Numbered from the stretch's first letter, positions 3,458 to 34,010 are shown. The stretch: DNA of 64,000 bases from a virus (IMGVR_UViG_3300043466_002666); one strand, 5' to 3'. Translations and numbers: made by a program. The notes: generated from the sequence alone by a model not told the origin.

Positions 3458-5463
3458 TCAACCGATGGTTGGAGCAGTCAAGGCAACTGGTGTTGCTTCA
3501 ACTGATGCAAGGTCAAGAGGGAAATTGTGGGCATTCTTGTAAACCTCTTGAAAGTCTGATATTGCTATCAGGATTGGACTATATCATCACCAGTTCTGGT
3601 GTCGGAAGCTCTAGCCTGTTATTAAGGGGACTAAACCCCTCAGGTAGTCTCTGAACCTTTCCTAGATGCATCTAGGACTTGGCTGCTGATTGCCCGCTTG
3701 GGGTTTCCAGCAATTCATCCGATTTAAAGAGCGCAATACCCAAATCTACGCTCATGCATTACCTCCATACCGAGTCCACCACGATTCAGAATGTCTGCCC
3801 ATGTATTAATTACATGACCCTGACTATCTTGAATTGACTGGTTGAAGTTGAAGCCATTCAGGTTGAATGCCATCGTGCTAACTCCCAGAGCAGTGAACCA
3901 AATACCAACGACAGGCCAAGCAGCCAGAAAGAAATGTAGAGAGCGAGAGTTGTTGAAGGACGCATATTGGAAAATCAAACGACCAAAATAACCATGAGCA
4001 GCTACAATGTTGTAGGTTTCTTCTTCTTGTCCGAACTTGTAGCCGTAGTTCTGTGACTCATTTTCTGTCGTCTCACGTACAAGACTAGAGGTGACAAGAG
4101 ATCCGTGCATAGCAGAGAAAAGAGAACCACCGAAGACACCAGCAACTCCCAGCATATGGAAAGGGTGCATAAGAATGTTGTGTTCCGCCTGGAAAACAAG
4201 CATGTAGTTGAAAGTTCCTGAAATCCCCAGAGGCATTGCATCAGAGAAGGATCCTTGACCGAAGGGATAGACCAGGAACACTGCACTAGCAGCAGCAACG
4301 GGTGCAGAGTAGGCAACACAAATCCAAGGACGCATACCCAGTCGGTAAGATAGTTCCCATTCACGACCCATGTAGGCATAGATACCAATTAGAAAGTGGA
4401 AGACGACCAATTGAAATGGTCCACCATTATATAGCCATTCATCGAGAGAAGCAGCTTCCCAGATGGGATAGAAGTGCAGACCGATAGCATTGCTAGAAGG
4501 AACAACAGCACCAGAAATGATGTTGTTTCCATACATTAGTGACCCAGCAACTGGTTCACGAATCCCGTCGCTTACACCTAACAAACAACCATATCTTTTG
4601 ACTTAGGTTGCTTCTGTTGACGAATTTGATTTGCTCGTTTTGCGTTTTCTACTCTTCCACCATTCTCTACCCACTCTTTCCAAGTTTGTAGATGAGAAAT
4701 ACATTCTTTTATCCTCTCTCCTCGTCTTACTCCCATATAAGGAAGTATTTGTTGTAGAATGGATAAAACTTTTTCTTTTTCTCCGATGTGAAGTGTATAA
4801 ACTTGCTTTCCTTTTACAGTTTTTCTTGATGGTGAGAAGTATGATTTATCTAAAAGTTTACTCAACCTTTGGATAATATCTTCATCTACCATAGAAATTT
4901 TGATAAAAGGTGCTGGTGGAGTATTAGAAACTTCGTAACGGTCTTTGGAACGATTGTCTATTCCAAAGTATCCTTCACCTTCTAATAAACCAGCAATCCA
5001 AGCAACATCAGTTTCAGTTAAGTCTAACATTTTAATCTTGCGTCTTCTGTACTATTTATACAGCATTAGCAAGAAAAAGTCAACAGTAGATGTGTGGACT
5101 ATATCTTCACCCTTCAAAGAAGGGGCTGGGCACTTAAACCTGTTATTAAGGGGACTAAACCCCTCAGGTAGTCTCTGAACCTTCCTCAAGTGTACTTGAG
5201 GCTTGGCTGCTGATTGCCTTTCGGTTTCCAGCAATTCACCCAGTTTCGTCAATACTCTTACGAGTAAGGGACACCGATTAGTTAATGTCTACGGGAGGAG
5301 CAGCAATGAAAGCAACAATGAAACAAATAGTAGCAGCAAGAAGGGTAGGAATCATTAGAGTTCCGAACCAACCGACATAGAGACGGTTATCGGTAGAAGT
5401 TACCCACTCACAGAATTGTTCCCAAGTGTTACTTCCACGCTGTTGAGCGAGGGTAGCAGTCAT
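3458..5463 (-). CDS. psbA: Photosystem II D1 protein; spliced exons 5285-5463, 3748-4570, 3458-3535 (359 aa)
   Basis: Clear D1 sequence; joins PPVDI|DGIREP and VMHER|[10 protein letters not shown] restore a 1080-nt frame. Confidence 0.97.
3536..3747 (-). mobile_element. Group I intron 2 of psbA (212 nt, no ORF), after codon 334
   Basis: P1 GAGCGU/GCGCUC with U-G at the splice site, P10 GGUAUU/AAUGCC, core AATTGCTGGAAA, AATCAGCAG, GTTCAGAGACTA, GATATAGTCC, terminal G. Confidence 0.93.
4578..5030 (-). CDS. Intron-encoded single-motif LAGLIDADG homing endonuclease
   Basis: [13 protein letters not shown] motif, [11 protein letters not shown]...L. Confidence 0.85.
5053..5060 (-). promoter_or_regulatory. 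Late promoter TATAAATA inside intron 1
   Basis: Exact consensus 22 nt upstream of the intron ORF. Confidence 0.75.
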
Positions 5464-7603: not shown

Positions 7604-7637
7604 ATTATATATGAAAAAGGGGGTTTTGTCAACCCCC
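7604..7637 (-). promoter_or_regulatory. Consensus sigma70 promoter within a terminator hairpin
   Basis: TTGACA-17-TATAAT; GGGGGTT-GACAA-AACCCCC followed by T-run. Confidence 0.8.
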
Positions 7638-7650
7638 AATTGTCAGAAAA

Positions 7651-8532
7651 TCAGAACTTGAATCCCAGACCCGTGGTGAACACAGGAGAATAGGTTCCGT
7701 TGGTAGCACCATAGCTGTTAGCAGCATTGGTGGTAGGGAACTTCAGATCAGCAAAACCAACTAGTGAATTGGTTAGACGACCTTCAATACCTAGAGCAAG
7801 TACAACCTGACCCTTCTCACCAACAGCAGACTGGAAATTAGCCGCAGTGTTGTTCACGAAAGGAATCTGATAACCAACACCAGTATAGATGTTAGTACGG
7901 CTCACACCAGAAGCAGCCTTAGCAATACTCCAGTCATAGGCAACTAGAGCACCACCTGCAGCACCAATCTCACCAGCAGGAGTACCTACTAGGTTAGCAT
8001 AGGGACGAACAGAAACAGCATTCTGATTAGCAAAGGTCTTTACAGCATAACGACCTTGAACAGTAGCACCAGAGATAGTACGGTTCTCAGTGTAACCATT
8101 ACCATCAACGCCTTGCTTGTTTAGAAGAACACCAGCACCTAGGTAGTTACCTACACCCTGAGCCTTTTGAGCAGCAGCTACTTCTAGTGCAGTTACACGG
8201 GCATTAGTAGCACCGAGTTCCTTAGCAAATTCTGCACGAAGAGCAGCAGCTAGTTGTGCATCTGCAGCAGTTTGGAATTCGCTGATACGATCCAGACATG
8301 CATTAGTGAGTGCAGCAAGTTGAGCACGAGTAGCAGGTTCACCAGGACGGAAAGTGCCATCAGGGAAACCAGCAACACAACCATAACGGGATACTAGGTT
8401 AGAAATAGCCTGGTATGACCATTCGGTTGGTTGAACATCACGCAGTTGGGAAACACTGGTGACTTGTGCCATAGCAGGGGAGATTGCAGTTGCAGCAACA
8501 ACACCAGCAGCAATAAATGAACGAATCATCAT
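7651..8532 (-). CDS. SLH-domain outer-membrane beta-barrel protein (Som/porin-like N-terminus)
   Basis: Signal peptide, VTSVSQLRDVQPTEW...YGCVAGFPDGTFR SLH, coiled coil, beta-strands, terminal Phe. Confidence 0.8.
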   Translation of the reverse strand: MMIRSFIAAGVVAATAISPAMAQVTSVSQLRDVQPTEWSYQAISNLVSRYGCVAGFPDGTFRPGEPATRAQLAALTNACLDRISEFQTAADAQLAAALRAEFAKELGATNARVTALEVAAAQKAQGVGNYLGAGVLLNKQGVDGNGYTENRTISGATVQGRYAVKTFANQNAVSVRPYANLVGTPAGEIGAAGGALVAYDWSIAKAASGVSRTNIYTGVGYQIPFVNNTAANFQSAVGEKGQVVLALGIEGRLTNSLVGFADLKFPTTNAANSYGATNGTYSPVFTTGLGFKF

Positions 8533-8568
8533 AATTTTAAATGATTAACTACAGATTTTATTTAGCTT

Positions 8569-8638
8569 TGGAAGTGGTTGGAATCGAACCAACTACTGTG
8601 TGGATTGTCTCCGTGCCGCTCCAGTTGGCTTCACTTCC
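8569..8638 (-). ncRNA. tRNA-like RNA with aberrant anticodon arm (possible pseudo-tRNA)
   Basis: Perfect acceptor GGAAGTG/CACTTCC, D-arm and T-arm, but anticodon arm GGA-GACAA-TCC has a 5-nt loop. Confidence 0.55.
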
Positions 8639-8648
8639 ATGAAATCCT

Positions 8649-8682
8649 ACTATAGCAGGAGTTGTGGGGGCTGTCAACCCCC
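8649..8682 (-). promoter_or_regulatory. Sigma70 promoter upstream of tRNA-like RNA
   Basis: TTGACA-17-TATAGT inside GGGGG/CCCCC hairpin. Confidence 0.7.
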
Positions 8683-8684
8683 TT

Positions 8685-8843
8685 TGCAGGCTCGCCACCA
8701 GTTTTGATTACGAGAAAACTGGAAACTCGGCAGAGTAAAAACTCCTCATCCGCACCAGTCGGCATATTTTATGTCCATCCGACGAGGACTAAATTGGGTC
8801 ATACTTGACTCCACCAGGGCAAGTTTTTAAGTCATTCCGAGAC
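8685..8843 (-). ncRNA. Structured RNA resembling cyanophage manA/wcaG motifs
   Basis: Repeated hairpin/pseudoknot modules each followed by TGGYG; family assignment from recollection only. Confidence 0.5.
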
Positions 8844-9029
8844 TTCTATATCATTGTATATTTGCCAGATATACTGTTTATGTTCTTCAAGCTTTTGAAT
8901 TGTCTCGTGCATTTTAATATAATTTTTTAGATCTAAACGATCTTCAATTTGTTTTAGTGTTGTGATTACACTTTGTATTTCGTCACAAACATTCAATAAC
9001 TTGAGAGAACAATAAGTTGTTTTTTGCAT
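8832..9029 (-). CDS. Hypothetical coiled-coil protein (start MQKTT)
   Basis: ORF lying between RNA modules. Confidence 0.55.
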   Translation of the reverse strand: MQKTTYCSLKLLNVCDEIQSVITTLKQIEDRLDLKNYIKMHETIQKLEEHKQYIWQIYNDIEVSE

Positions 9030-9091
9030 GGGAATTAGGGGACGCATCCGACCAGTACTGTTATAGACCATCCGTGTCTCTGTGTATTTAG

Positions 9092-9244
9092 TTATTCTTT
9101 GGATTTTGGTTTATTGCATTCGTTACAATAATATGAAAATCCTGTCCTGAAATATTTTACCACTTGATAGTGGTCTTTGTCAAGGGGGTACTCAGTGTGA
9201 CATTTTGAGCACTGTCTAGTCCCACCACCAGCAGAGGTTTTCAA
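9092..9244 (-). CDS. Small zinc-finger-like protein (start uncertain)
   Basis: CSKC...YYCNECN. Confidence 0.5.
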   Translation of the reverse strand: MKTSAGGGTRQCSKCHTEYPLDKDHYQVVKYFRTGFSYYCNECNKPKSKE

Positions 9245-9797
9245 GCGTGTTGATGAACTGCTCGTAATAGACTGTACGACTTGGATTAGGTTTACCATCT
9301 TTCATGTCTTGGAGATACTGTATGATACCACGAACCACAGGGGTGTCCTGGAAGTATTCGTGCATTTTGTAACAATCAAACTTCTCAATGTATTCAACGA
9401 ATCCATGCAAAGGTGCCATGTTACGACGATATGCATAAATGAATACATCTTCATCTTTGATACCTTCTTTGTTTAGAATTTCTAATGGAGTATATTTTTC
9501 TCCATCATGTTCTTCTTCAAGTTCTTTTGCATCACCAAATACAAAATGAAGACCATCATAATATTTGTCATGCAACTCTTGGTCTGGTGCTACACGAAGC
9601 TTTTCATTTTGTTCCAAATAATAGTTCATGCGGGCTTTGGCGTCTTCATTCGTCAGGCGAAACACGATGTTACCAATGTAGTAATCTACAGGACCTCCAT
9701 ACATGTTTTCGGATGTTCTTTTTCTGAATGACAGATGAGTAATCTCAAATCCAGGTTCTTCGTATTCAGTTTCAACGAGTCCTTGTGAAATAGTCAT
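9216..9797 (-). CDS. Hypothetical protein
   Basis: 193-aa ORF, ATGA overlap. Confidence 0.8.
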   Translation of the reverse strand: MTISQGLVETEYEEPGFEITHLSFRKRTSENMYGGPVDYYIGNIVFRLTNEDAKARMNYYLEQNEKLRVAPDQELHDKYYDGLHFVFGDAKELEEEHDGEKYTPLEILNKEGIKDEDVFIYAYRRNMAPLHGFVEYIEKFDCYKMHEYFQDTPVVRGIIQYLQDMKDGKPNPSRTVYYEQFINTLENLCWWWD

Positions 9798-12064: not shown

Positions 12065-12140
12065 TCCGAATGCTCGGATTTGAACCGAGATTATTCCTGC
12101 TCCCAAAGCAGGTGCCATGACCAAGTTAGGCGACATTCGG
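12065..12140 (-). tRNA. tRNA-Pro(TGG)
   Basis: CCTGC-TTTGGGA-GCAGG. Confidence 0.9.
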
Positions 12141-12346
12141 AGGTGAATGGTGGGATTCTGTCATACCCACAACTGGAAGGTTACACTGACAACCGTATTC
12201 CAGAACCTAGATTCTTCTTGGTGAGAAGTTCTATACCTTTGATTTCCCAACGATACAGCGGGCACCACCCCTAATCTATTACATTATCCCGTGAGTAACC
12301 ACAAAGATTATTCTGTCACATTCTTTGGAAACCCGTCGATTTCCAA

Positions 12347-12768: not shown

Positions 12769-12797
12769 TGATTCATACCTTAATTATTCAGTTGTCA

Positions 12798-12870
12798 CGG
12801 GTTAGGCAGGAATCGAACCTGCGACACACGCTTTAGAAGAGCGTTGTTCTATCCGCTGAACTACTAACCC
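12798..12870 (-). tRNA. tRNA-Arg(TCT)
   Basis: ACGCT-CTTCTAA-AGCGT. Confidence 0.92.
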
Positions 12871-12882
12871 AATTACCTTTTT

Positions 12883-13812: not shown

Positions 13813-13903
13813 TGAGAAGGGAGGGAATTGAACCCCCGATGGTTCTTATGTAACGGTTTTACAGACCGCAGCCACACATATTGCCAACAGTAGCCACCTT
13901 CCC
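13813..13903 (-). tRNA. tRNA-Tyr(GTA) with enlarged D-arm
   Basis: GCGGT-CTGTAAA-ACCGT; variable arm; 14-nt D-loop. Confidence 0.8.
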
Positions 13904-33889: not shown

Positions 33890-33979
33890 ATCGTTCATCC
33901 ACTTATGTGGACGGAAGTAAGCCGACTCGGAACGGATCGTTCATCGGGAAACCGACGCAAAAGCCGACTGAAGGAACGC
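33890..33979 (+). ncRNA. Tandem glutamine riboswitch (glnA RNA motif), aptamers 33890-33935 and 33936-33979
   Basis: Two ATCGTTCATC-stem-GACG(G/C)AA..AAGCCGAC..GGAACG units. Confidence 0.8.
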
Positions 33980-34010
33980 TCTTTAACCTAAAAAACTAAG
34001 GAGAAACCTA

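Follow-up and report, generated by a model that had tools for sequence, protein, structure and literature searches.

Cyanophage wcaG RNA in its very probably complete form, a chain of four pseudoknot modules

The array and its parts

What kind of RNA is encoded where short pseudoknots, each followed by UGGYG, stand in a row on one strand of a phage genome and are interrupted by a small ORF? The question was raised by a locus in a 64,000-nt stretch of viral DNA (the window; all coordinates are window positions, and the element is on the minus strand). The window comes from a T4-like cyanomyovirus whose nearest named relative is S-CREM1 (Kyanoviridae), and it also carries a tRNA cluster, a manA RNA, psbA with group I introns, and hli and ferredoxin genes. 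A sequence-only reading had described an array of four pseudoknot units and a 65-aa ORF at this locus, and all of them were found on the minus strand at the places given, with the ORF interrupting the array between modules 1 and 2. The analysis presented here indicates that this stretch is very probably the complete form of the cyanophage wcaG RNA, in which four compact H-type pseudoknot modules form a chain; the Rfam wcaG model spans modules 3 and 4 only. The general unit consists of a pseudoknot, single-stranded UGG-Y-S and a short G-rich hairpin. The parts are listed below from 5' to 3'.

9085-9091, minus strand: CTAAATA, a T4-type late-promoter-like motif and putative promoter, six bases 5' of module 1, beside which it had already been noticed
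9050-9079, minus strand: module 1 (type 1a; unit four of the sequence-only reading), AGAC-ACGGATG-GTCT-ATAACAGTAC-TGGTC
9038-9049, minus strand: linker hairpin of module 1, GGATGCGTCCCC, read from the sequence; the counterpart of the GGGAGCAAACCCC linkers in other loci
8832-9029, minus strand: 65-aa ORF (stop codon included in the coordinates) for a two-helix hairpin protein, from protein clusters, synonymous changes and structure prediction
8812-8844, minus strand: module 2 (type 1b; module A of the sequence-only reading), AGTC-TCGGAAT-GACT-(13 nt)-TGGTG
8796-8811, minus strand: linker hairpin of module 2, GAGTC...GACCC; its 5' strand GGAGUCA is kept in 49/51 type-1b modules
8753-8789, minus strand: module 3 (B), H-type pseudoknot with S1 GTCC/GGAC and S2 GTCGG/CCGAC, then UGGUG; Rfam P1
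8729-8752, minus strand: single strand CGGAU and the wcaG P2 hairpin, conserved, from the Rfam alignment (the GCGGAUG tail was found in 118/122 loci)
8693-8729, minus strand: module 4 (C), H-type pseudoknot with S1 CGAG/CTCG and S2 CCAGTTTT/AAAACTGG, then UGGCG; Rfam P3
8683-8692, minus strand: 3' tail AGCCUG and a short spacer, conserved
8649-8682, minus strand: stem-loop GGGGG-TTGACAG-CCCCC (8666-8682), then TATAGT; a PeSL-type terminator/early promoter, here without a U-run

Module 1 is built from a 4-bp stem (AGAC/GTCT), a 7-nt loop (ACGGATG) and an A-rich tail that leads into UGGUC. In module 2, the loop and the 3' strand of the stem also contain the UGA stop codon of the 65-aa ORF. What had been read as loop pairing in the two core modules corresponds to Rfam P1 and P3, and the short stems GTCC/GGAC and CGAG/CTCG are their pseudoknot partners. 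UGGU occurs three times and UGGC once in the array. The linkers differ by type: UGGUC-GGGAG..CCCC in 1a, UGGUG-GAGUC..GACCC in 1b, UGGUG-CGGAUGGG..CCC in B and UGGCG-AGCCUG in C.

Elsewhere in the window, psbA is split by two group I introns (3555-3793 and 5078-5294, minus strand; 84 and 66 bits), and a 157-aa ORF between psbA exons (4578-5051, minus strand) may be an endonuclease encoded by an intron. On the opposite strand, 33890-33982 (+) matched the glutamine riboswitch (glnA RNA) with 51.4 bits.

Conservation and covariation of the modules

The suspected likeness to wcaG was borne out by the Infernal search, in which Rfam RF01761 matched 8684-8791 (minus strand), that is, modules B and C, with 49.8 bits (cut-off 42; E = 4.4e-08) over model positions 1-98 of 98. 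The layout of the Rfam alignment was present as well: a hairpin followed by UGGUGCGGA, a short hairpin, and a hairpin followed by GUGGCGAG, with pseudoknotted 5' flanks. No other Rfam 15 family matched 8400-9400, even at E up to 10, and the upstream type-1 modules (module A and unit four) are absent from Rfam. These modules were also not described in the wcaG literature that was searched, the coverage of which was incomplete.

For comparison across phages, 120 viral contigs carrying the wcaG core were collected. More than 20 contigs contained the 32-nt unit four with about 97% identity, although their cores shared only 70-77% identity with that of the window. A type-1 descriptor was then applied (a 4-bp stem, a 7-nt loop with GG, an A-rich tail and TGGT[CG]), and at least one type-1 module was detected within 700 nt upstream of the core in 104/121 cyanophage loci. 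The descriptor matched 158 times in 79 kb upstream of cores versus 123 times in 1.98 Mb of background, an enrichment of about 32-fold. The window itself contains two canonical type-1 copies only, module A and unit four.

The covariation in homologues on which the sequence-only reading had been made to depend was present both in the S1 stems and in the loop-tail pairs. In the core, S1 pairing exceeded that under permutation (52% vs 25% for module B; 49.5% vs 35% for module C), with many compensatory types, including CGAG/CTCG, CTGG/CCAG and CCAG/CTGG in module C. The type-1 stems showed compensatory variants (AGAC/GUCU, AGUC/GACU, CGUG/CACG and UGCC/GGCA), and their pairing rate alone is not evidence because the descriptor itself demanded a paired stem. 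Between loop position 2 and tail position 4, CG was found in 21 modules of the 12-nt-tail class, UA in 11 and another combination in 1, and the corresponding counts in the 10-nt-tail class (43 distinct modules) were 31, 12 and 0. Between loop position 5 and tail position 5, GC was found 18 times, AU 11 times, UA three times and another combination once. When the partners were slid as a control, pairing dropped to 22-43%. Both type-1 copies of the window obey this covariation: the loop position 2-tail position 4 pair of module 1 is C-G, and the loop-tail pairs of module 2 (C-G, A-T and A-T) agree with the pattern across loci. These loop-tail pairs therefore show that the type-1 modules are also minimal H-type pseudoknots.

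Architecture and distribution of the array

The order of the modules was tallied, as follows, in 103 distinct loci for which 720 nt or more of upstream sequence was available.

1a, an ORF-sized gap, B-C: 35 loci
1a, 1b and B-C without a gap: 16 loci
1a and B-C without a gap: 10 loci
1a, a gap, 1b and B-C (the form in the window): 8 loci
1b, 1a and B-C without a gap: 5 loci, with more gapped forms in either order
type-1 module not detected: 13 loci

The second and third rows show that arrays without any ORF are common. None of 61 host-family genomes matched wcaG, and the search detected the RNA in 3/3 phage records used as positive controls, once in each, one of these records being a complete genome. 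The wcaG RNA thus looks phage-specific and single-copy. S-CREM1, grown on CB0101, and S-RIM2, grown on WH7803, are culturable relatives with a wcaG RNA.

The 65-aa ORF and other embedded genes

The 65-aa ORF is a real gene. Its relatives fall into 26 protein clusters with 69-100% identity, nearly all of exactly 65 aa, and the four differences from the closest contig, L003, are all synonymous. The product was predicted to fold into a two-helix hairpin (helices 2-29 and 34-64; pLDDT 91), for which a fold search returned generic helical hairpins only; no PADLOC, Pfam or PHROG match was found for the ORF, and neither it nor its neighbors matched a defense family. In 16/16 viral loci that encode it, the gene is located between 1a and 1b modules. 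A 79-aa version starting at an ATG in the module-1 loop was rejected, as the extension is not conserved and relatives with the loop ATGGAGA stop at once.

At least eight unrelated small-gene families occupy the gaps between modules. A 75-79-aa protein with two transmembrane segments is by far the commonest, and the others include the MTPYELRF family, a coiled-coil protein, the MSEVNMRF family, a zinc-ribbon protein, a cupin, a GIY-YIG endonuclease and the family found in the window. Embedded ORFs typically start 15-16 nt past UGGUC, behind the GGGAG linker, with GGGAG 10 nt ahead of the AUG, and ORFs upstream of a module stop inside that module, at a UAA in the A-rich tail or a UGA in the loop. 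The linker is the same whether an ORF or the next module comes after it. Given this diversity of gap families and the unchanged linker, the 65-aa ORF is read as cargo in a permissive gap and not as a dedicated partner of the RNA. The core itself was considered as a coding region and rejected, because the frames opened by the AUG in the module-2 linker differ greatly in length between loci.

The exchange of genes exactly at module boundaries, together with 32-nt blocks that are about 97% identical across diverged phages, would also be expected if the modules were mainly patches of DNA homology at which small genes are shuffled by recombination. Such shuffling has a precedent in the promoter-early stem-loops (PeSLs) of T4-type phages (PMC2839356, PMC4122927). 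We nevertheless consider this account most improbable for the array, since compensatory changes in the stems and loop-tail pairs indicate selection on RNA structure, the module order is largely fixed, and the arrangement around the 65-aa gene has been stably kept among relatives whose proteins are 69-100% identical.

The same data bear on the main idea of the sequence-only reading, namely that the array serves an RNA-binding protein of host or phage, which would recognize UGGYS or a bulged GG, as a scaffold or sponge. Four similar modules with invariant single-stranded motifs would suit such a protein, as would the invariant GG between the two covarying loop-tail pairs and the four CGGAUG copies in the element, which are 4 of the 8 copies of CGGATG on the minus strand of the 64-kb window. 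This explanation is nonetheless unlikely, as no protein gene is conserved in the neighborhood, the embedded ORFs belong to unrelated families, and the best-known case, CsrA with GGA hairpins, was excluded. A CsrA sponge had come into question through the loop ACACGGAUGGU, which resembles the CsrA SELEX site. It was rejected because CsrA (PF02599) was found neither in three host-type genomes nor in two phage records, whereas the controls (Escherichia coli, Bacillus subtilis and Thermotoga maritima) were positive.

Transcript context of the array

The likely terminator that had been noted after the array was recovered as a terminator-type stem-loop 3' of module 4. In about 90% of 108 distinct loci, a GC-rich hairpin follows 5-35 nt past the core, mostly with a T-run and TATAAT. 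The hairpin loop is TTGCAT or TTGACA, and the TATAAT after the T-run is part of the early promoter of the next gene. In the window, the stem-loop at 8666-8682 is followed by TATAGT, and 11/12 promoter positions match. Since the terminator carries the early promoter of the next gene, the array is read as a 3'-terminal RNA and not as a 5' leader. In this respect it resembles the PeSL elements: the closing stem-loop bears the -35 box of the next promoter, and short conserved elements stand on either side of small variable genes. It differs from them in that the wcaG modules are pseudoknots with covariation at the RNA level and not promoter-terminator hairpins.

A second GGGGG-TTGACA-CCCCC stem-loop is present at 7619-7637 (minus strand); its loop likewise holds a -35 box, a T-run is present, and the promoter matches perfectly (12/12). 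Near-identical copies of both stem-loops (7619-7637 and 8666-8682) were found in unrelated contigs. Downstream of the array in the window is a tRNA-like gene (tRNA-Met or tRNA-Gly in relatives), followed by the gene for an SLH-domain protein. The tRNA-like gene (8570-8638, minus strand; fold z = -2.56) was not called by ARAGORN or the Rfam tRNA model. Its acceptor stem is 7-8 bp long, a D arm and a perfect T arm (GGTTCGATTCC) are present, and the anticodon arm is reduced to a 3-bp stub with a 5-nt loop. Contigs L114 and L003 carry a nearly identical gene although their flanks have diverged. The SLH protein (7651-8532, minus strand; 293 aa; Pfam SLH, E = 9e-11), encoded directly after the array, has a signal peptide and appears outer-membrane-like. 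Its only relatives in genomes (72-77% identity) are on short contigs in Proteobacteria and Acidimicrobiaceae MAGs, which are probably mis-binned phage DNA.

At the other end, (C/A)TAAATA was found 5-9 nt ahead of module 1 in 10/16 loci of the window's lineage. CTAAATA has been described as a late-promoter consensus of a T4-like phage (PMC1524935). Its 16 copies in the window equal the 16 expected by chance, yet 14/16 are on the coding (minus) strand, and several are 20-40 nt before ORF starts (6840, 8559, 9085, 10375 and 11543). The transcript probably starts at a late-type promoter before module 1 and ends at the stem-loop past module 4. With this predicted start and end, the array would give a small mRNA its structured 5' and 3' termini, and in phages without an embedded gene it would probably be an sRNA of roughly 200 nt. 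Most loci have same-strand tRNA genes close by, of which some stop 2 nt short of module 1 and others begin 29-58 nt past the core. Upstream of the array in the window, a 68-aa zinc-ribbon ORF (9092-9298, minus strand) overlaps, in a different frame, the end of a 193-aa ORF. Its PHROG matches, to the endonuclease VII N-terminus and to Lar-like proteins, are weak, and it contains a promoter-like site (9154-9183; 11/12).

Such a transcript layout invites the explanation that the modules are elements of RNA stability, processing or translation coupling, which either keep RNase E/J and 3' exonucleases away from the termini of short late transcripts or tRNA-cluster transcripts, or link termination of one small ORF with initiation of the next. 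Module 1 at the predicted 5' end, modules 2-4 directly before the terminator, upstream ORFs that stop within a module, and the fixed 15-16-nt distance from UGGUC to the embedded start codons would all fit. We regard this explanation as somewhat unlikely, because ORF-free arrays are common, the linker does not change when a module instead of an ORF comes next, and a stabilizer would leave the invariant UGG-Y-S and the conserved tails unexplained.

The transcript context also bears on the established label of the motif. wcaG is an orphan riboswitch candidate from a 2010 survey (Weinberg et al., PMC2864571), and phage papers still annotate it as a cis-regulator of exopolysaccharide genes. A small-molecule riboswitch, with the pseudoknots as aptamers for the ribosome-binding site of the embedded ORF or for read-through of the terminator, would agree with that rating, with the compact pseudoknots, A-rich third loops and conserved nucleotides reminiscent of small pseudoknot aptamers, and with the GGGAG linker ahead of the embedded AUG. 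The array, however, is not built like a riboswitch expression platform, since the terminator stands at a variable distance and uses none of the motif's strands, so that neither overlap nor competition with an aptamer was found. Moreover, the downstream gene has its own promoter within the terminator and is inconsistent between loci, and the modules vary in number and order and are separated by ORFs. A riboswitch is therefore decidedly unlikely, and the earlier doubt about a 5' riboswitch for the next gene is upheld by the terminator and early promoter that intervene in most loci.

The element thus shares with RF01761 the P1, P2 and P3 helices, the UGGUGCGGA and GUGGCGAG strands and the occurrence in a T4-like cyanophage. 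It differs in being about twice as long, with two further pseudoknot modules upstream and a gene inserted, and in the terminator with its own promoter that separates the motif from the downstream gene. Because of this intervening terminator and promoter, followed in the window by the tRNA-like gene, the Rfam 'Cis-reg' leader label does not fit. The catalogued motif is very probably no more than the last half of a modular chain.

Complementarity to host tRNA 3' ends

UGGN is the sequence by which T-box RNAs pair with the NCCA end of tRNA. The psbA protein of the window is 96-98% identical to those of freshwater and estuarine picocyanobacteria, and as possible targets all 43 tRNAs of one complete host-type Synechococcus genome were tabulated. 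In module B, UGGUGCGGAUG is perfectly complementary over 11 nt to CAUCCGC-A-CCA, with which mature tRNA-Leu(CAG/GAG) ends; the module's tail UGG-UGCGGAUG forms 8/8 Watson-Crick pairs past UGG, and the matching tRNA end is present in 115/121 host-family genomes. In module 1b, UGGUGGAGUCA pairs with tRNA-Ala(GGC) over 11 nt with one G.U, so that its tail UGG-UGGAGUCA reaches 8/8 past UGG with the G.U counted, and the rare 1b variant GGAGCCA is a perfect match to the same tRNA. For module C, UGGCGAGC forms eight contiguous pairs with tRNA-Arg(CCG), followed by a C.U mismatch that the tail keeps even though this tRNA is invariant in the hosts; a full-length target for the C tail was not found among the host tRNAs.

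Type 1a always reads UGGUCGG, the complement of CCGACCA, an end that among host tRNAs is carried only by tRNA-Pro (C1:G72). The 1a variant CGGGAUG fully matches tRNA-Pro(CGG), the tail in the window (CGGAUGC) matches tRNA-Pro over 7 nt and no further, and the commonest 1a tail, CGGGAGC, has no tRNA target among 121 host genomes. At the two G.U sites of the tRNA stems (Ala G3.U70 and Arg G2.U71), the tail has A, indicating that it complements the 3' strand and is not a copy of the 5' strand. The phage tRNAs of the window gave at most three contiguous pairs with the tails.

These matches were compared with chance expectation. The probability of an 8/8 match with G.U allowed was 0.098 in a null of random sequences with tRNA-like composition, 0.046 among background TGG[TC][GC] sites and 0.012 among all TGG sites; for 8/8 Watson-Crick pairs it was 0.018. 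Two strong matches of four, together with the Pro-specific C, beat the null models only moderately and are suggestive without being conclusive. Local hairpins partly sequester the tails, and the energetics of invading a 7-bp acceptor stem from a 4-nt toehold are marginal. Pairing of UGGUG to the 16S rRNA 3' end was considered as well and gave no fit by inspection.

From these complementarities, we tentatively propose, at less than even confidence, that the modules form a multivalent platform, working in trans, on which host tRNAs dock with their NCCA-3' ends. CCA would be bound by UGG and the discriminator by the base that follows (U in the case of A73, C in that of G73), and the conserved tail would extend into the 3' strand of the acceptor stem of host tRNA-Pro, tRNA-Ala(GGC), tRNA-Leu(CAG/GAG) and tRNA-Arg(CCG). 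The pseudoknot could stack on the short helix between tail and tRNA. Host tRNAs that read G/C-ending codons might in this way be sequestered or disabled, while the phage would supply its own U34 tRNAs. A more far-reaching version, which we hold to be doubtful, is that the array is an anti-host tRNA RNA: using the ACCA end as a toehold, it would remove host tRNAs for G/C-ending codons from aminoacylation and translation, and the A/U-reading phage tRNAs encoded next door would escape. If true, this would be a new way to bias translation toward the phage, and the long puzzling tRNA islands of phages would be linked to an RNA that acts on the host tRNA pool. A chain that stands ahead of a terminator with an independent promoter, and whose tails complement specific host tRNA ends, shifts the apt assays for wcaG to tRNA binding and transcript-end mapping and away from ligand screens.

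Comparison with T-box, ToxI and manA RNAs

The array is like a T-box in its single-stranded UGG-N beside a structured helix, where N fits the discriminator base. It differs in lacking Stem I with the specifier loop and the antiterminator/terminator alternative, in offering four sites per RNA, in complementarity that continues into the acceptor stem, and in being phage-encoded and probably acting in trans. No T-box match was obtained in the Rfam scan at E up to 10, and no alternative pairing with the terminator was found. The array would work like a T-box in its UGGN pairing at most and is not a member of that family.

The sequence-only reading had also offered a type III toxin-antitoxin decoy. 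As in ToxI, repeated pseudoknot-forming RNA units adjoin a small gene; in the array, however, the units are not tandem direct repeats, and the gene is inside the array and interchangeable. Tandem Repeats Finder returned no rows for 8500-9300, where the modules differ in sequence, and no ToxN, AbiQ or CptN-type toxin was found with PADLOC, Pfam or PHROG. With neither tandem repeats nor a toxin gene or defense-family match, and with an ORF that is a 65-aa helical hairpin read as cargo, this proposal was dropped. A tmRNA-like reading of the pseudoknots, ORF and tRNA-like end was likewise rejected, as ARAGORN detected no tmRNA and the embedded ORFs are ordinary genes.

The manA RNA (RF01745) occurs in the same phages and the same tRNA-cluster neighborhood as wcaG and is likewise an orphan with pseudoknots from the 2010 survey. 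Its fold is a multi-stem junction in which UGGYS modules were not seen. manA RNAs are now reported to form kissing-loop cages of 8, 10 and 60 copies (bioRxiv 10.64898/2026.07.01.735769), and nothing comparable is reported for wcaG. That report and the shared neighborhood would favor a self-assembling architectural RNA, in which RNA-only oligomers form through intermolecular loop or tail contacts. We judge this very unlikely for the array: wcaG is not mentioned in the manA preprint, no self-complementary conserved loops were found in the array, and arrays split by ORFs speak against a fixed protomer geometry.

In the window, the manA RNA (12140-12345, minus strand; 118.5 bits) is flush between tRNA-Ile(UAU) and tRNA-Pro(UGG), and S-CREM1 is arranged alike. 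Because it abuts both tRNAs without a spacer, it is probably released by tRNA processing. ARAGORN also called two further tRNAs on the minus strand, one with the anticodon CUA (12797-12871), labelled Pyl and thus of the amber-suppressor type, and a tRNA-Arg(GCG) with an unusual length of 91 nt (13813-13903).
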